A DNA stretch of 12,368 nucleotides, taken from a virus. Its lineage: Duplodnaviria; Heunggongvirae; Uroviricota; Caudoviricetes. The stretch is taken from IMG/VR virus record IMGVR_UViG_2531839473_000005; one strand, 5' to 3'. The notes beneath the pieces were generated by a model. That model worked only from the letters and a program-made list of their open reading frames with translations. It had not been told where the DNA came from and did not search any database. Position 1 is the first letter of the stretch; every line of letters begins with the position of its first letter. This document shows positions 2,841 through 12,368 of this stretch, in pieces. The translations under genes were made by a program, and so were the position numbers.

Positions 2841-4004
2841 TTACGCCTTCTTTATATCCTCCATAATTCCAGAGTGGGACATATTTGGGACATTATCACC
2901 AAAAATGTCGTCTATTTTCCTCGCATGCTCTGTCAAATGATTAGGCGCAAGGTGAGCATACCTACGAACCATTTCTATGGACTCCCATCCGCCCATTTCC
3001 TGAAGCACTGATAATGGGACGCCTGACTGAATCAGCCAGCTTGCCCAGGTGTGTCTGAGGTCATGGAAACGGAAATCTTCAATTCCTGCACGACGACAAG
3101 CTGATAGCCATGATGTCTTGCTGTCGATGCGCATCTTCCTGACCGCAGGCGTTGATGTTCCATCTGCTCGCTTAGCCGCCTTGGTATGTACAAACACCCA
3201 TTTGTGATGCTTGCCTATTTGATCACGCAACACTTTACAGGCGGTATCGTTCAGCGCCACACCAATGGCGCGGTTTGATTTGCTCTCTTCTGGATTCACC
3301 CAGGTAACTCGTCGCTGCATGTCGATTTGTTGCCATTCCAGATTTATGATGTTCGACTTTCTCAGACCAGTTGCCAGCGCAAACTTGACGACAGATTTCA
3401 GTGGTTCGGGGCACTCATCAATAAGGCGTTTTGCTTCCTCCTTTTCCAGCCATCTGACTCGCTTGTTTCTGACCGCTGGTATCTTGATGACAGGCGCTTT
3501 TTCCAGCCACTTCCAGTCGCGTTCTGCAGCACGGAGAATGGCCTTTATCATGGCAAGATGCTTTGCCTTTGTCTGAGTTGATACTGGCTTTGGTTCATAA
3601 ACAGGCGGTTCTTTACCTTTCCTGATGGCGGCCTGAACTTTCTGTTTCCATATTTCTTTCGTCTTTCTGTTATGCATTCTGCTTACAGCAGAGTAAATCT
3701 TTGCCTCCGAGATATCTTTAAGCCTTATACCCTCAAAATGTTCAAGCCAGAACTCAATCCGGCTTTTATCTGAATCGAGAGATTTTTTATCAGCTTTTTC
3801 CTCAAGCCATCTTAGGCAGGCCTCTTCAAAAGTGACATCAGGTAAATCCCCTAGCTTTTCTACTCGCCAGAGTTCTGCTTTTCGCTTGTCGTGCAACTCC
3901 TGAGCTTGCCGCTTGTCCTTTGTGCCAAGAGATTCCTTAATTCGTTTCTCGCCCGGGAGCGAATACGAGGCATACCATATTTCATTTCTGCGGAAGAGTG
4001 ACAT
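2841..4004 (-). CDS. intD: Prophage tyrosine integrase (DLP12 IntD-like), 387 aa
   Basis: Sits directly beside the tRNA; C-terminal HDLRHT...YAHL motifs (tyrosine recombinase R-H-R-Y signature); N-terminus [18 protein letters not shown] recalled from argU-associated integrases. Confidence 0.85.
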
Positions 4005-7245: not shown

Positions 7246-7320
7246 GGCTGACCTCCTGAAAATGGCTGTGAAAATATCGCCCGCGAAATGCCAGGCTGAT
7301 TAGGAAAACAGGAAAGGGGA

Positions 7321-7611
7321 TTAGTGATTCAGGCCGTTACCGCGTCCGTCGAGAAAAACTTCCACGAGCAAATCACGGGTATAAGTGCGCTCGATGCCGC
7401 GATGCAGATAAAGCCGTCCGCGTAAATTAGCTGATGCAGTCCAGGTACCATCTTTGTGTTTGACCAGCATTCCTGGCATGACCGCACCTCGATTAACGGT
7501 CTGCGTTCCATAATGTTGATGAACCATAAAAACTCCTGCCCGTAAGCTGGGCTGCTGAACATATAGAGACTTCTGCGCGTATTCAGGCGGTGGATGGCCG
7601 CCGGTTGTCAT
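7321..7611 (-). CDS. Hypothetical protein at the kil/cIII position, first gene of the leftward early operon (96 aa; possible 68-aa form from internal Met)
   Basis: Longest ORF after the PL-like promoter; GAGG 13 nt upstream of first ATG; an internal ATG has a stronger RBS (GGGCAGGAG); a nested 77-aa ORF in another frame makes the call uncertain. Confidence 0.4.
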
Positions 7612-7804
7612 AACTAAGCCGCCTCGTTGAAGCGACTAAGGTATGAAATGTTGAGTTAATTTCAGCTGGTCACACCGACGTTCACGCGTCCGTTTCACCC
7701 CTCGCACTCCCCGAAGCCTGCTGAAATTCAAACTGCGGATCTAAGCGGTCATCGCAACGGTGAATCAGGTAGTTGCCGTATCGTTGTGTTGTTGCGATGA
7801 ACTT

Positions 7805-7856
7805 ATTTAAAACTATAGTTGTTTTATTGTCAACAACAAAAGTTGTTTTATTGGTT
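7805..7856 (-). promoter_or_regulatory. PL-like leftward early promoter with OL-like operator repeats
   Basis: Minus strand: TTGACA (7833-7828), 17-bp spacer, TTAAAT (7810-7805); -35 embedded in GTTGTTGACAATAAAACAAC with flanking AACAAC/GTTGTT inverted and direct repeats. Confidence 0.5.
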
Positions 7857-7974
7857 GTTTTAGATATAACTGGTTGTATTTAGGATGGATTTATTTTGTG
7901 ACTTGAATCGCATAGCGATAACTGAAGTGAGGTTATGGTGGTTTTTTTAACGGTGTGTGTGATGAGGGGAGGGC

Positions 7975-8001
7975 AAAAGAAAACCCGGCACGGTGACCGG
8001 G
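7975..8001 (-). terminator. Rho-independent terminator downstream of the repressor gene
   Basis: Minus strand CCCGG-N8-CCGGG hairpin followed by TTTTCTTTT, about 120 nt after the cI stop. Confidence 0.55.
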
Positions 8002-8122
8002 ATTCTTACGCCGTTAGGTAAAGATATTATTGCGGTGGCTTAATATTACTACCTAGAGCAAAGATAGGAATTAGTTCTTTACTGAATGAGCACAATGCCC
8101 AGTTGATAATTTTTAATTGGTA

Positions 8123-8812
8123 CTACCCATGCTTCCTATATGTCTGCGGCATGCTCCCAATAACCTTACCGAAGATGAACACCCGGTTCATCTCGTCTTT
8201 CTCGATCGGGTCCCACGGTGAGTAGCTTTTGTTATCAGAGATGACCAGCAGCTTATCCTTCATCATTTGCAGGCGCTTTACATGGGCTGTGTCGTCGTAC
8301 AGAAACGCATAGATACCATCACCGTCGAAAGATTTAACTGTGATATCAACGAACAGCAGATCACCTGGTTCGATCGTTCCTGACATGCTGTCACCACGCA
8401 CGTTAATGATGCGGATATTTTCCGCCTTCCTACCATCGAACATGTGACGAGCATCGTCAAACGAGTACTCAACCGAGCGTAGAACTTCTACAAACTCACG
8501 GTTGATGACTCCCGGCCCAGCACTGACTTCTATATCAAGAACGTCAATCTTGAAGTATTTGGAATGGCTGACAGTTGATTGTATTGGTTGCACTGTACTG
8601 TCTGACATATTTCCAACGCCAGAAGATAACCATTCTGCGCGCACACCCAAAGCGTTCGCGATCTCCACGATTTTAGTTGTTTGATTAGCTTTCCCTGTTT
8701 CGATTTTCTGAATAGCAGCCTGGCTAACCCCGACCAAATCCCCAAGCGCCTTTTGTGTAAGGCCTCGCGCTAATCTGGCTTCTTTAAGTCTTTCTGAGAG
8801 TGTTGTTTTCAT
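8123..8812 (-). CDS. cI: CI-type prophage repressor (XRE-family HTH plus S24 LexA-like autopeptidase), 229 aa
   Basis: N-terminal HTH (LTQKALGDLVGVSQAAIQKIETGK); C-terminal RGDSMSGTIEPGDLLFVD and downstream HVKRL (Ser/Lys dyad); start at internal Met because the longer ORF would run through the operator. Confidence 0.85.
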   Translation of the reverse strand: MKTTLSERLKEARLARGLTQKALGDLVGVSQAAIQKIETGKANQTTKIVEIANALGVRAEWLSSGVGNMSDSTVQPIQSTVSHSKYFKIDVLDIEVSAGPGVINREFVEVLRSVEYSFDDARHMFDGRKAENIRIINVRGDSMSGTIEPGDLLFVDITVKSFDGDGIYAFLYDDTAHVKRLQMMKDKLLVISDNKSYSPWDPIEKDEMNRVFIFGKVIGSMPQTYRKHG

Positions 8813-8823
8813 AGTCCAAATGT

Positions 8824-8889
8824 ACAACCAAGGTTTTATTCCATCAAACGAAAATGGTTGTTGACTAAAAACAACCATAGTTTTAATCT
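8824..8889 (+). promoter_or_regulatory. OR-like operator region with rightward PR-like promoter
   Basis: Palindrome ATGGTTGTT-gactaaa-AACAACCAT (8854-8878) containing -35 TTGACT (8861-8866); candidate -10 TTTAAT (8882-8887); second half-site pair ACAACC-aa-GGTTTT at 8824-8837; cro RBS ACGGAGG follows. Confidence 0.55.
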
Positions 8890-8916
8890 TGATTCAAATT
8901 AACCACGGAGGTTGTT

Positions 8917-9147
8917 ATGAACCCAGCTATCAAAACAGCGATCAATATCGTTGGTTCACAAAAGAAACTGGGCGCTGCTTGCGAAGTTTCACAGCAGGCC
9001 GTCTATAAGTGGCTTCACAACAAAGCAAAGGTATCCCCTGAACATGTCGGCAGCATTGTTACGGCTACTGGTGGAGTAGTGAAGGCATACCAGATTCGCC
9101 CGGATCTTCCGAAGTTGTTTCCACACACCGAAAAGAACGCAGCTTAA
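8917..9147 (+). CDS. Cro/YdaS-like HTH regulator, 76 aa
   Basis: Divergent from the repressor across the operator; HTH segment LGAACEVSQQAVYKWL; size and position typical of Cro. Confidence 0.75.
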   Translation: MNPAIKTAINIVGSQKKLGAACEVSQQAVYKWLHNKAKVSPEHVGSIVTATGGVVKAYQIRPDLPKLFPHTEKNAA

Positions 9148-9216
9148 ATTTCCATTTCACGCTCTTTAACAATAAGCAATCAACTTAACAGTCAATTCAA
9201 ACTAAAGGAGTCAATT

Positions 9217-9756
9217 ATGCAACCACTTACATACCAACAGACTAGCGGATTTAGCCCGACTGCGGTGATAAATCGTTCTCAAACAAAACAGGTGCCAGGC
9301 CACGAAAAAATCCGTGATGCCGTCCGCGCCTGGTCGGCTGTAGATAATCAGGATGTCGTTGCCACACTCATTGTGAATGAGTATCGGGAGCAGGGCGGCG
9401 GCACCATCGATTTCCCTGATGATGTCAGCCGTGCACGCCAGAAGCTGTTCCGCTTCCTCGATAACAAATTCGATTCTGAAAAATACCGAAATAACGTGCG
9501 TGAACTGACCCCGGCAATTCTGGCGGTACTACCGCTGGAATATCGCGGTTACCTGGTTGAGCAGGATAGCTTCATGGCTAGGTTGGCTGAAATGGAAAAG
9601 GAACTCAGTGAGGCAAAACAGGCTGTCATTCTCAACGCACCACGCCACCAGAAACTGAAGGAAATTAGTGAAGGTATTGTGTCGATGTTTCGTGTGGACC
9701 CAGATCTGGCTGGTCCATTGATGGCGATGGTTACTACCATGCTGGGGGCGATATGA
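9217..9756 (+). CDS. YdaT-like protein occupying the cII position, 179 aa
   Basis: AAAGGAG RBS; motifs IVNEYREQGGG and LTPAILAVLPLEYRGYL resemble Rac YdaT as recalled (EYLRQGGG, LIPAILAILPRELR). Confidence 0.6.
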   Translation: MQPLTYQQTSGFSPTAVINRSQTKQVPGHEKIRDAVRAWSAVDNQDVVATLIVNEYREQGGGTIDFPDDVSRARQKLFRFLDNKFDSEKYRNNVRELTPAILAVLPLEYRGYLVEQDSFMARLAEMEKELSEAKQAVILNAPRHQKLKEISEGIVSMFRVDPDLAGPLMAMVTTMLGAI

Positions 9757-9842
9757 CAGGTTCAGAAATGGCGAAAGCCGGTCTGCTGGAACAGAACCGA
9801 CTTTCAGGTGCAAATCGTAACACACTCATTGCGGGAGGAATT

Positions 9843-10772
9843 ATGGCAAACACTGCTGAGATATTCAATTTTCCAGTGCCGGATGCGGCACAAAAGGAGC
9901 CGCGCGTGGCAGATCTCGATGATGGTTATACGCGCATTGCAAATGAGTTGCTGGAAGCTGTGATGCTGGCCGGATTAACACAGCACCAGCTTCTGGTCTT
10001 TCTGGCTGTCATGCGCAAAACATATGGCTTTAATAAAAAACTGGATTGGGTTAGCAACGAGCAACTTTCCGAATTAACCGGGATATTGCCGCACAAGTGT
10101 TCTGCTGCAAAAAGTGTTCTGGTAAAGCGTGGGATTTTTATTCAGAGCGGGCGGAATACCGGCATTAATAATGTGGTCAGTGAATGGTCAACATTACCCG
10201 AATCAGGTAAGAAAAATAAAGTTTACCTGAAAGAGGTAAATTTACCTGAATCAGGTAAAAAAAGTTTACCCAAATCAGGTAAAGGCGTTTACCCGAATCA
10301 GGTAAACACAAAAGACAAACTAACAAAAGACAATATAAAACCTTTTTCGTCCGAGAATTCTGGCGAATCCTCTGACCAACCAGAAAACGATCTTCCTGTG
10401 GTGAAACCGGATGCTGCAATTCAGAGCGGCAGCAAGTGGGGGACAGCAGAAGACCTGACCGCCGCAGAGTGGATGTTTGACATGGTGAAGACCATCGCGC
10501 CATCAGCCAGAAAACCGAATTTTGCAGGGTGGGCTAACGATATCCGCCTGATGCGTGAACGTGACGGACGTAACCACCGCGACATGTGCGTGCTGTTCCG
10601 CTGGGCATGCCAGGACAACTTCTGGTCCGGTAACGTGCTAAGTCCGGCCAAACTCCGCGACAAGTGGACCCAACTCGAAATCAACCGTAACAAGCAACAG
10701 GCAGGCGTGACAGCTAGCAAACCAAAACTCGACCTGACAAACACAGACTGGATTTACGGGGTGGATCTATGA
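9843..10772 (+). CDS. O: Lambda O-like replication initiator, 309 aa from this start
   Basis: MANTAEIFNF...VADLDDGYTRIANELLEA...KTYGFNK resembles the lambda O N-terminus as recalled; RBS GGGAGGA; iterons inside the gene; an alternative upstream start at 9753 exists. Confidence 0.85.
   Translation: MANTAEIFNFPVPDAAQKEPRVADLDDGYTRIANELLEAVMLAGLTQHQLLVFLAVMRKTYGFNKKLDWVSNEQLSELTGILPHKCSAAKSVLVKRGIFIQSGRNTGINNVVSEWSTLPESGKKNKVYLKEVNLPESGKKSLPKSGKGVYPNQVNTKDKLTKDNIKPFSSENSGESSDQPENDLPVVKPDAAIQSGSKWGTAEDLTAAEWMFDMVKTIAPSARKPNFAGWANDIRLMRERDGRNHRDMCVLFRWACQDNFWSGNVLSPAKLRDKWTQLEINRNKQQAGVTASKPKLDLTNTDWIYGVDL
10191..10345. repeat. Origin of replication: 4-5 iterons plus A/T-rich region inside the O gene
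   Basis: Repeats of TTACCCGAATCAGGTAAA-like units (TTACC...GGTAA palindromic) at about 10191-10309, followed by aaacacaaaagacaaactaacaaaagacaatataaaa; same architecture as ori-lambda. Confidence 0.7.
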
Positions 10773-11836: not shown

Positions 11837-11930
11837 ATGAACCCTTATATTTATCTTGGTGGTGCAATACTTGCAGAGGTCATTGGTACAACCTTAATGA
11901 AGTTTTCAGAAGGTTTTACACGGTTATGGC
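11837..11930 (+). pseudogene. emrE: SMR-family multidrug efflux gene emrE, truncated after codon 31 by IS2
   Basis: MNPYIYLGGAILAEVIGTTLMKFSEGFTRLW matches the EmrE N-terminus as recalled; RBS AGGAAAG; the IS2 IRL begins at 11931. Confidence 0.8.
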
Positions 11931-12368
11931 TAGACTGGCCCCCTGAATCTCCAGACAACCAGTATCACTTAAATAAGTGATAGTCTTAATACTAGTTTTT
12001 AGACTAGTCATTGGAGAACAGATGATTGATGTCTTAGGGCCGGAGAAACGCAGACGGCGTACCACACAGGAAAAGATCGCAATTGTTCAGCAGAGCTTTG
12101 AACCGGGGATGACGGTCTCCCTCGTTGCCCGGCAACATGGTGTAGCAGCCAGCCAGTTATTTCTCTGGCGTAAGCAATACCAGGAAGGAAGTCTTACTGC
12201 TGTCGCCGCCGGAGAACAGGTTGTTCCTGCCTCTGAACTTGCTGCCGCCATGAAGCAGATTAAAGAACTCCAGCGCCTGCTCGGCAAGAAAACGATGGAA
12301 AATGAACTCCTCAAAGAAGCCGTTGAATATGGACGGGCAAAAAAGTGGATAGCGCACGCGCCCTTATT
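11931..12368 (+). mobile_element. IS2 (IS3 family), partial copy cut by window end; IRL tip at 11931 faces the window interior
   Basis: Begins TAGACTGGCCCCCTGAATCTCCAGACAACC; reverse complement of the left copy (1-484) over the shared length, with identical ORF translations. Confidence 0.9.
12022..12368 (+). CDS. insC: IS2 transposase OrfA (InsC), 3'-incomplete at window edge
   Basis: ATG at 12022 followed by [18 protein letters not shown]...; runs to the end of the window. Confidence 0.85.

Follow-up and report, generated by a model that had tools for sequence, protein, structure and literature searches.

A YdaS/YdaT-type gene pair in the cro and cII positions of a phi80-type prophage, with a predicted leftward promoter at the 5' end of its cII-like gene

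In the window (the whole stretch of DNA analysed, 12,368 nucleotides), a reading made from the sequence alone had noted two genes resembling ydaS and ydaT of the Rac prophage in the positions of cro and cII. This raises the question of whether the pair forms a toxin-antitoxin module or governs the choice between lysis and lysogeny, and why its second protein is longer than Rac YdaT. The pair was found to consist of ordinary Cro-like and CII-like lysis/lysogeny regulators of the phi80 / YdaS-YdaT type, carried by a very common E. coli prophage.

Genomic setting and identity of the two genes

Both open reading frames described by the sequence-only reading, for proteins of 76 and 179 amino acids, were present at 8917-9147 (+) and 9217-9756 (+), and its placing of them in the cro/cII positions agreed with the flanking genes, a divergent CI-like repressor on one side and O/P-like replication genes on the other. 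The gene order is cI (-), cro (+), cII-like (+), O, P, identical to that of phi80; the cII-like gene follows the cro-like gene, precedes the replication genes and is divergent from the repressor. The repressor (8123-8878, - strand) carries an HTH and an S24 LexA-type autocleavage domain (Pfam Peptidase_S24, 1.5e-18; HTH_3, 6.5e-13). It probably begins in fact at the ATG at 8812 (residue 23), where matches to PHROG 4 and 6201 begin; its counterpart in phage PhiR34_1 is annotated cI. The O-like replication initiator (9843-10772, + strand; Pfam Phage_rep_O, 1.1e-33) starts at 9843 rather than 9753, as PHROG matches begin at residue 31 of the long open reading frame, and its Shine-Dalgarno (SD) sequence and ATG line up with the beginning of phi80 gene 15.

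The pair belongs to a lambdoid prophage that has inserted in the DLP12 position, next to a tRNA gene (2749-2822) which we take to be the Arg gene argU. That tRNA was the sole credible Rfam match in the window, and Rfam gave no match in the region of the gene pair. The cI-cro-cII stretch was 100% identical to that of PhiR34_1, an inducible phage whose record labels it cI/Cro/cII, and was matched in 2226 of 5426 complete E. coli genomes (roughly 40%); since a functional phage and thousands of genomes carry identical DNA, these open reading frames are not chance products. The phage records with identical sequence already label the 179-aa gene cII, and the impression that lambda Cro and CII had been replaced in an unusual way gave way to that of a classical phi80 arrangement.

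Between cI and cro lies a divergent, OR-like operator/promoter region (8813-8916) of 104 bp (or 38 bp, by the repressor start taken), in which a repeat search found four ACAACC(A) half-sites and, among them, a perfect 9-bp inverted repeat, ATGGTTGTT-N7-AACAACCAT, at 8854-8878. The pR promoter may be formed here by TTGACT (8861-8866) and TAATCT (8884-8889) with a 17-nt spacer; a consensus promoter scan did not list this candidate, the -10 of which matches at just 3 of 6 positions.

The cro-like gene (8917-9147, + strand; ATG after GGAGG) is the first of the rightward operon and shares its operator region with the divergent repressor. The profile search that had been proposed as a check on the YdaS/YdaT assignment upheld it for both proteins. 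The 76-aa product matched PF15943, YdaS_toxin, over residues 5-64 (62.2 bits against a cut-off of 30; E 4e-17) and PHROG 35 (1.5e-27), and its nearest solved structures were the all-alpha Cro proteins 3BD1 and 5W8Y (E about 1e-3). Its score against Pfam P22_Cro, 22.8 bits, was under the family cut-off of 30.2. The cII-like gene (9217-9756, + strand; ATG after AAGGAG) encodes a protein that matched PF06254, YdaT_toxin, over residues 67-154 (103.5 bits against a cut-off of 21; E 8.5e-30) and PHROG 163, 'CII-like transcriptional activator', over residues 17-179 (E 4e-67). At E <= 1 the 76-aa protein had no Pfam match to the lambda Cro family (alpha+beta) and the 179-aa protein none to lambda Phage_CII, in keeping with the earlier statement that neither is of the lambda type. 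NCBIfam has no model for either protein.

In the spacer between the two genes, a boxA-like motif, CGCTCTTTAACAA (9161-9173, + strand), was read from the sequence; it may be a component of nutR and recurs upstream of the homologues in loci L007 and L010, and by the rrn/lambda consensus it would be a boxA. An 8-nt direct repeat, AGTCAATT, present twice at 9190-9216, was set aside as being at about chance level and not kept in relatives. Downstream, between cII and O, lies an oop/M3-like antisense RNA unit (9773-9868, - strand), recognised by promoter scan and fold energy: its promoter, TTGAAT-17-CATAAT (9868-9840), matched at 9 of 12 positions with a TG, and a terminator-like hairpin (9805-9773) had a fold energy of -24.1 kcal/mol (z -2.7). 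The M3 RNA of phi80 occupies the same place, and the full order in the window is cI, operators, cro, cII, oop-like RNA, O, P.

The orthologue of the 179-aa protein in phi80 is CII (JX871397, 35671-36213), which is 66% identical over its full length (179 versus 180 aa), the likeness reaching through the N-terminal extension as well as the hydrophobic tail at the C-terminus. The phi80 order is likewise cI, OR, gene 30/cro, cII, antisense M3/oop RNA, gene 15/O, gene 14/P, and phi80 also carries the conserved 5' DNA element discussed below. Its immunity specificity differs, with a Cro-like protein (gene 30) that is barely alignable (12 of 26 identities) and different operators, and phi80 has an N gene, whereas no gene of comparable size was seen in the window. 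In a 1988 phi80 record, cII is annotated as only 132 aa. The homology of YdaT and phi80 CII is already in the literature, and the gene pair is already known.

Fold and extra length of the CII-like protein

The AlphaFold2 model of the 179-aa protein (monomer; mean pLDDT 84) was disordered at residues 1-25 and comprised a five-helix HTH domain at 29-112 (helices 29-43, 45-58, 70-82, 88-104 and 107-112), followed by C-terminal helices at 119-138, 143-159 and 162-178. The modelled combination of a POU-like HTH, a long alpha2-alpha3 loop and a long helix, with pLDDT above 89, is that of the YdaT family; the loop, residues 59-69, is 11 residues long, within the published YdaT range of 9-23. With this model the only significant Foldseek matches were the YdaT structures 8BT1 and 3C4R (probability 1.0, TM 0.67-0.69).

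These structures represent YdaT of CP-933P, a 'CII functional analogue', which is the best structural match at about 26% identity although sequence similarity is marginal (E 0.002). It has the same POU-like five-helix HTH and long alpha2-alpha3 loop, followed by a helix. In CP-933P YdaT this is a single 29-residue helix that builds an antiparallel four-helix-bundle tetramer and is followed by a disordered tail, whereas the 179-aa model has a 20-residue helix and two further confident helices. CP-933P YdaT activates a promoter carried on a fragment from the ydaS-ydaT interval, and its footprint covers TTGATT-N6-AATCAA (PMC8630535, PMC9986795).

Rac YdaT (b1358) was 35% identical over residues 29-122 of the 179-aa protein, and Rac YdaS (b1357), which is longer at 98 aa, was 30% identical to the 76-aa protein over 63 residues. 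The two systems share their Pfam families, their slots beside a divergent repressor and the logic of an HTH activator; the Rac repressor, RacR, is not of the S24 autocleaving kind, unlike the CI-like repressor of the window. Rac YdaT residues H56, R57 and W58, of which the first two are needed for DNA binding and the third for the fold, align with F78, R79 and F80: HRW in Rac is FRF here, the Arg being invariant in the clade and the His replaced. The recognition helix as a whole reads QKLFRF against NIYHRW in Rac (Arg kept, Trp replaced by Phe), an observation that stands as a counterpoint to the promoter model described below.

The claim that this copy is longer than Rac YdaT held (179 versus 140 aa), as did that of extra length as such; the surplus is not a single insertion peculiar to this copy. 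It comprises about 24 disordered residues at the N-terminus and about 15 residues at the C-terminus, Rac YdaT being without the first ~24 residues and the last two helices, and both the N-terminal extension and the longer C-terminal helical region are conserved across a clade of 178-182-aa proteins in Enterobacteriaceae. Several features speak for translation of the extension: the SD is strong, an ATG is present in 39 of 44 loci and an in-frame ATG or GTG start in 41 of 44, and indels occur only in multiples of three. On the reading developed below, the extra C-terminal helices take over part of the place that one long tetramerisation helix has in short YdaT proteins, and the additional 24-27 residues at the N-terminus are regulatory DNA read out as protein; the corresponding DNA of Rac is found at the ydaT start codon and directly before it.

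The history given for the Rac pair, proposed first as a toxin-antitoxin module and later as Cro-like and CII-like regulators, with Rac YdaT toxic on expression, was borne out by the literature (PMC5917428, PMC8630535, PMC11879457). A pair made up of a poisonous protein and its antidote would fit the Pfam names YdaS_toxin and YdaT_toxin, the RefSeq name that the 179-aa protein bears in thousands of genomes ('toxin YdaT domain-containing protein') and the toxicity of Rac YdaT and YdaS on derepression or overexpression (PMC5700377, PMC11879457). Such a module was nonetheless judged extremely improbable here: both products are HTH DNA-binding proteins whose genes take exactly the places of cro and cII in a lambdoid early region that is complete, neither sequence holds anything beyond an HTH and oligomerisation helices, the phi80 orthologue is cII, and in experiments the CP-933P and Rac proteins regulated transcription, with no toxic effect seen for CP-933P YdaT (PMC8630535); Jobling's letter argues likewise.

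Conserved DNA at the 5' end of the cII-like gene

Synonymous identity among 44 non-redundant loci was higher in codons 2-22 than elsewhere in the gene (0.67 versus 0.49; Mann-Whitney P 1.6e-5), an excess that held when codons were matched for amino-acid identity (P 5e-4), and non-preferred codons are fixed in this stretch, CTT in 36 and the rare Ile codon ATA (at the dyad) in 37 of the 44. The conservation points to two elements. The first is a predicted CII-like binding dyad, GTGATA-AATCGT-TCTCAA (9265-9282), the counterpart of the YdaT box: its bases T50, G51, A52, T63 and C64 (gene numbering) are invariant in all 44 loci, giving a core pattern TGA(T)-N9-TCA. Every locus matches TTGATT-N6-AATCAA at this place at 7-11 of 12 positions (8 of 12 in the window), and the dyad is the unique position-weight-matrix match in the window. 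The second is a predicted -10 of a pRE-like promoter, TAGTCT (9239-9244, - strand; pattern TAnnnT), given by gene nucleotides 23, 27 and 28, which are likewise invariant in 44 of 44 loci while codons 8, 9 and 10, in which they fall, take 9, 8 and 6 forms; nowhere else in the gene is an antisense TAnnnT conserved, the next best position reaching 48%. From the centre of the dyad to the -12 base of this -10 is 29.5 bp, which would place the dyad at -41.5, and the leftward start site would lie near 9232.

These features suggest a CII-activated, leftward, pRE-like promoter within the 5' DNA of cII, so that the extra N-terminal piece of the protein looks to be encoded by DNA resembling its own binding site and a leftward promoter; this is the fresh point of the present analysis. 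Taken together, it appears quite probable that the pair serves a phi80-like immunity and early region as its Cro-type and CII-type regulators, with a leftward promoter of this kind activated by the CII-like protein.

By the published pattern, TTGATT-N6-AATCAA with up to 3 mismatches, the window held 14 matches against 9.5 expected, so the pattern is unenriched, and the real site has 4 mismatches. Neither the strict pattern nor the position weight matrix revealed a second CII-type site in the window, such as a pI analogue close to int.

The conserved DNA can in part also be read as a small hairpin, GCGAU-GAUAA-AUCGC, or as an imperfect IHF-like site. If codons 2-22 are conserved for the sake of the cII mRNA, through an AU-rich unstructured initiation region, this hairpin or an IHF site that helps cII to be translated, as one does in lambda, the CII promoter would lie elsewhere. 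The fixed codons are indeed AT-rich (CTT, TCA, CAA, ATA, AAT), the hairpin is 84.8% paired with G-C, A-U and C-G variants at one pair (weak covariation) and is reached by 3 of 500 shuffles, and the IHF pattern WATCAANNNNTTR at nucleotides 16-28 has one or two mismatches in most loci. This explanation was considered unlikely. The invariant TCA at nucleotides 63-65 falls outside the hairpin, the 5' arm of which is just 55-77% conserved; the IHF pattern is fully present in only 1 of the 44 loci; and a translation ramp does not predict three invariant bases that give TAnnnT on the opposite strand. Nor does such a ramp predict the same spacing between box and TAnnnT in loci where these elements precede or straddle the start codon. 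Short-class homologues were sought by tblastn on phage records. In 7 of nine otherwise unrelated YdaT-family loci (Rac, CP-933P type, Klebsiella, Stenotrophomonas, Pectobacterium, Citrobacter and Aeromonas) the distance was the same as in the window, and in the other 2 it was one base longer (coincidence P about 6e-13 at a background rate of 0.011 per position).

The 5' end of Rac ydaT likewise carries a dyad box, and 26 nt leftward of this box stands an antisense TAnnnT; in Rac the box straddles the start codon, whereas the dyad of the window lies in codons 17-22. Footprinting places Rac YdaT on ATGATT-N6-AATCAA, spanning the start codon of its own gene, and the protein drives 29-fold, box-dependent leftward transcription, which was credited to a predicted promoter about 190 bp away rather than to a box-proximal one (PMC11879457).

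A dyad that serves mainly for repression, as a roadblock or in autorepression of pR transcription into cII and O/P, or in the control of host genes as by Rac YdaT at rcsA, with no activation of repressor establishment, would suit a site inside the transcribed cII gene. Binding of Rac YdaT extends to the ydaS promoter and to a host promoter, and the Acta D paper terms its protein a 'CII repressor'. This is very unlikely to be the main function: mutation of the Rac box barely changed ydaT-lacZ, while it was leftward expression that rose 29-fold, simple repression leaves a conserved antisense TAnnnT at class II distance unexplained, and the phi80 GenBank record annotates cII as a lysogeny 'decision making' gene. 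The same record annotates pL, pR and pRM and no pRE, and no phi80 transcription-mapping paper came up in the literature searched.

Proposed course of events and implications

In the activation model, transcription from pR after infection would proceed through cro and then the cII-like gene. The CII-like protein, with its N-terminal POU-like HTH and C-terminal helical oligomerisation region, would bind TGA(T)-N9-TCA at 9265-9282, within its own codons 17-22, and from this site, centred at -41.5, would activate in class II fashion a leftward promoter with the antisense TAnnnT at 9239-9244 as its -10. The transcript, starting near 9232, would run antisense across the cII ribosome site and cro and on into cI, and would establish repressor synthesis as lambda pRE does. 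CII is probably kept in check by the oop-like antisense RNA at the 3' end of its gene, as happens in lambda and in phi80.

In lambda, the CII site and pRE overlap the 5' end of cII and fire leftward, antisense to cro, with an antisense RNA at the 3' end, and CII binds direct repeats, TTGC-N6-TTGC, flanking the -35. Lambda CII holds the same genetic slot and presumed role as the 179-aa protein, but has no detectable sequence homology to it and is half its size; the sites differ too, direct repeats at the -35 in lambda and a predicted dyad centred at -41.5 here. A reading of codons 2-7 as lambda-like direct repeats flanking a -35 (TGGT-N7-TGGT; TGAT-N7-TGAT in relatives) was rejected, the repeat bases varying among loci and no consistent -10 being found in the variable upstream DNA.

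For the family as a whole, we lean, if narrowly, towards the view that the YdaT box is the activator site of a box-proximal leftward class II promoter (centre at -41.5 or -42.5, -10 TAnnnT) and that in the phi80 clade the cII frame has been extended upstream over this promoter. If this is true, the disordered extension of 24-27 residues would be a by-product of regulatory DNA or would reflect its double use, and the Rac model of activation 'from a distance', from a promoter 190 bp away, would be revised.

Neither the promoter nor the Rac point alters a major concept. For annotation, what bears the name 'toxin YdaT domain-containing protein' is here a CII of the phi80 type, which regulates lysogeny in a family of inducible prophages, and the toxin label misleads toxin-antitoxin surveys. 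The predicted promoter offers a concrete handle on how a non-lambda CII sets up repression and suggests a simpler reading of recent Rac data; if the family-wide view is correct, it would locate pRE to the base in the phi80-type phages that roughly 40% of complete E. coli genomes carry.

Identity and surroundings of the gene pair

The two rightward ORFs, of 76 codons (8917-9147, +; ATG start with SD GGAGG upstream) and 179 codons (9217-9756, +; ATG start with SD AAGGAG upstream), were compared with Pfam and PHROGs. The 76-aa protein matched PF15943 'YdaS_toxin' (62.2 bits, cut-off 30, E 4e-17) and, below threshold, P22_Cro, while the 179-aa protein matched PF06254 'YdaT_toxin' (103.5 bits, cut-off 21, E 8.5e-30); neither protein matched the lambda Cro or lambda CII families in Pfam at E <= 1. 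In PHROGs the proteins were assigned to phrog_35 ('transcriptional repressor') and phrog_163 ('CII-like transcriptional activator', E 4e-67), respectively. The sequence-only reading, which had placed a YdaS/YdaT-like pair in the cro and cII positions, is borne out by these matches and by the gene order: a CI-like repressor with HTH and S24-peptidase family matches is encoded divergently (8123-8878, -), and an O-like initiator, a P-like helicase loader and a Ren-like protein (Pfam, PHROGs) follow 3' of the pair, as in a lambdoid early region. To the left of the pair lie Exo, a RecT/Bet-type recombinase, a Gam-like ORF and an integrase (names taken from the PhiR34_1 record), with a tRNA gene adjoining these integrase and recombination genes.

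The inducible phage PhiR34_1 carries the 1.7-kb cI-cro-cII stretch at 100% identity, with the genes annotated cI, Cro and cII, and fifteen other phage records match the stretch at 96-99.8% identity, many sharing just part of it. Among 5426 complete E. coli genomes, 2226 gave a match, which covered at least 80% of the stretch in 1504; RefSeq names the larger protein in these genomes 'toxin YdaT domain-containing protein'. Such database names and the toxicity of the Rac proteins on overexpression are the sole basis for viewing the pair as a toxin-antitoxin module, a view that gene context, fold and the experiments in the literature speak against. YdaS and YdaT have already been described as analogues of Cro and CII, not as a toxin-antitoxin pair (PMC5917428, PMC8630535, PMC11879457), as the sequence-only reading had noted. 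The pair is an ordinary, known and very widespread phi80-type cro-cII pair, and it is already annotated.

In a protein-level search of phage records, the phi80 cII product was found to be a full-length orthologue of the 179-aa protein (66% identity over 179/180 residues), and related proteins carry the CII annotation in mEp237, HK225 and HK639. The gene order of the phi80 record is the same as that of the window: cI, three OR operators, gene 30 (Cro-like), cII, the antisense M3 RNA (annotated 'homolog of lambda oop'), gene 15 (O-like) and gene 14 (P-like). Details downstream of cII are also reproduced. The O-like ORF as mechanically listed begins at 9753, overlapping the cII stop; an SD and ATG at 9843 align with the phi80 gene 15 start, and the family matches agree, so the O-like gene starts at 9843, leaving a gap of 86 nt after the cII stop. 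A promoter scan of this gap gave a leftward match (TTGAAT-17-CATAAT, 9868-9840), and folding gave a stable hairpin (9805-9773; -24.1 kcal/mol, z -2.7); by sequence, the two are the predicted oop/M3-like antisense unit. In the 1988 phi80 early-region record (X13065.1, 3750-4148) cII is annotated as 132 aa and tblastn matches begin only at residue 34, while the 2012 phi80 genome record has a 180-aa ORF; a frameshift, or a start chosen too far downstream, probably explains the cII of the 1988 record.

Several further features of the early region were recorded. The CI-like ORF is annotated as 251 aa, yet residue 23 is where every family match starts. Since no obvious SD precedes the ATG at 8812, maintenance may depend on a leaderless transcript, like those of lambda cI and CP-933P paaR2. 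A terminator-like hairpin was found by sequence scan just beyond cI (8001-7984, -). No N-sized ORF is present between the Gam-like gene and cI (7250-8122), where the ORF listing gave only two overlapping candidates of 96 and 77 aa (7321-7611) and an Arg-rich ORF of 31 aa with a TTG start (7636-7731). Even so, positions 9161-9173 hold a boxA-like CGCTCTTTAACAA. Its identity as boxA, like the assignment of pR, is our own reading. Many of the relatives (loci L004-L062) have a conserved GCCGC-TTAAC-GGCGGC hairpin followed by CTAACCACGAAAGGGAAAGCA, approximately 15-45 nt before the start of the cII-like gene; this hairpin, which is absent upstream of the cII-like gene in the window, may be a nutR boxB-like or tR1-like element.

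The window ends in a perfect 438-nt inverted repeat (47-484 and 11931-12368), the arms of which hold an ORF that we take to encode the IS2 orfA (InsC) product. A fimbrial ORF, presumably sfmH-like, abuts the left copy, and an ORF starting at 11837, presumably emrE, is broken by the right copy. The early region therefore appears to lie on an 11.4-kb segment bracketed by inverted IS copies.

Extra length and predicted fold of the CII-like protein

The 179-aa protein had been described as longer than Rac YdaT by an extra segment. The difference in length is real (179 versus 140 aa), but it is neither a single segment nor confined to this copy. Rac YdaT aligns with residues 29-122 at 35% identity, so the surplus is split into approximately 24 residues before the conserved domain and 15 after it. 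At 50% clustering the family is small (111 representatives) and divides in two: a long class, which includes the window protein, and a short class of Rac/CP-933P type, with matches beginning at query residue 29. Long-class proteins (178-182 aa) share the N-terminal stretch MQSLTYQ...MINRxQ and a hydrophobic tail, GPLMAMVTSMLG; they occur in Escherichia, Citrobacter, Klebsiella, Enterobacter, Salmonella and other hosts, with identity to the window protein falling to about 25-50%. The extra length is a feature of the clade.

An AlphaFold2 model (33 sequences, mean pLDDT 84) predicted residues 1-25 to be disordered (pLDDT <50), followed by a five-helix HTH domain (29-112) and confident helices at 119-138, 143-159 and 162-178. 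In the PDB, significant structural similarity was confined to the YdaT structures 8BT1 and 3C4R (probability 1.0, TM 0.67-0.69, 26-27% identity), which were marginal by sequence alone (E 0.002-0.004). In the solved CP-933P YdaT, the domain leads into one 29-residue helix, through which the protein tetramerizes as an antiparallel four-helix bundle, and then into a disordered tail, whereas the monomer model of the 179-aa protein has a shorter helix and a helical hairpin in the same region.

Conserved DNA beneath the N-terminal extension

Sixty-seven loci of relatives were fetched from one-genome-per-species contigs, and the 44 retained at <90% nucleotide identity were aligned by codon. Among pairs with the same amino acid, codon identity was 0.67 at codons 2-22 compared to 0.49 elsewhere (Mann-Whitney P 1.6e-5), and 0.66 compared to 0.49 when only poorly conserved positions were considered (P 5e-4). 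Non-preferred codons are fixed here: Leu4 is CTT in 36/44 loci, against CTG at other Leu positions, and Ile18 is ATA in 37/44 and never ATC, the codon used at other Ile positions.

Two units of conserved bases were observed (numbered from the ATG at 9217). In the first, A23, T27 and A28 are invariant in all 44 loci, although codons 8, 9 and 10 vary in 9, 8 and 6 forms; on the opposite strand they read TAnnnT, the three key bases of a sigma-70 -10 element, and no other position in the 540-nt gene has a conserved antisense TAnnnT (next best 48%). In the second, T50 G51 A52 and T63 C64 are invariant (44/44), with T53 in 43 and A65 in 41 loci, giving the dyad TGA(T)-N9-TCA. The footprinted YdaT operator, TTGATT-N6-AATCAA, is matched at this place at 7-11 of 12 positions in all 44 loci. 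The window copy, GTGATA-AATCGT-TCTCAA (9265-9282), is a weak match to the consensus (8/12) and the sole position-weight-matrix match in the window. With 29.5 bp between its centre and the -12 base, the dyad is centred at -41.5 from a start approximately 7 nt past the hexamer, the textbook position of a class II activator.

The offset, set from the long-class data beforehand, was examined in Rac and in eight more mutually unrelated family loci from phage records: a CP-933P type (Tritos), three Klebsiella phages, Stenotrophomonas BUCT708, Pectobacterium ZF40, Citrobacter Chris1 and Aeromonas pAEv1818. In K-12 Rac, the footprint of the YdaT box ATGATTCATGAAAATCAA spans the ydaT start codon (PMC11879457), and the antisense hexamer 26 nt to the left of this box is TATGAT, again placing the box at -41.5 (L001, the fetched Rac locus, 3152-3195; NC_000913 1420651-1420694). 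An antisense TAnnnT was found left of the best box near the gene start in all nine loci, at 26 nt in seven and at 27 nt in two, the latter accepted post hoc; against a background of 0.011 per position, at least seven exact in nine gives P 6e-13. The position of the box varies between 41 nt before the start codon and 48 nt into the gene, and the 45 nt to the left of the boxes are otherwise unrelated (median 29% identity). There is some support for an action of the conserved 5' DNA at the mRNA level: the codons are AT-rich, a hairpin is 85% paired and shows covariation at one pair, and an IHF-like motif is present in imperfect form. Such an action leaves unexplained the invariant TCA beyond the hairpin and the conserved spacing where the elements lie outside the coding sequence.

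A predicted leftward promoter

A promoter activated from the dyad is consistent with published work, in which CP-933P YdaT switches on a promoter fragment between ydaS and ydaT (PMC8630535), and leftward transcription is 29-fold and box-dependent with Rac YdaT, which also increases expression of the repressor (PMC11879457). A purely repressive role for CII-like binding fits poorly with these Rac reporter data. The Rac box effect was credited to a BProm-predicted promoter approximately 190 bp away (PMC11879457); the Rac reporter kept the box-proximal DNA, so the effect may instead come from a proximal promoter, which is our reinterpretation.

In the window, the CII-like protein would bind the dyad at 9265-9282 and activate a leftward promoter whose -10 is at 9239-9244, with transcription starting near 9232. 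This RNA would be antisense to the cII ribosome-binding site and cro, and would then read into cI. The logic is that of lambda pRE, but the protein and the promoter architecture differ. The recognition helix of the window protein differs from that of Rac YdaT (FRF against HRW). In its GenBank record, phi80 is annotated with pL, pR and pRM and no pRE; no paper mapping phi80 transcription was found in the literature searched, and a mapped phi80 pRE may already exist.

Translation of the extension is supported by the strong SD, by the start codons (ATG in 39/44 loci; ATG or GTG, in frame, in 41/44), and by indels that are all multiples of three. The extension would then have a simple origin, because in the long clade the reading frame begins upstream of the promoter and box, and regulatory DNA would be translated as a disordered leader. 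The one point worth passing on is that the promoter-plus-box architecture carried in these codons appears, from the sequence comparisons, to be conserved throughout the YdaT family.
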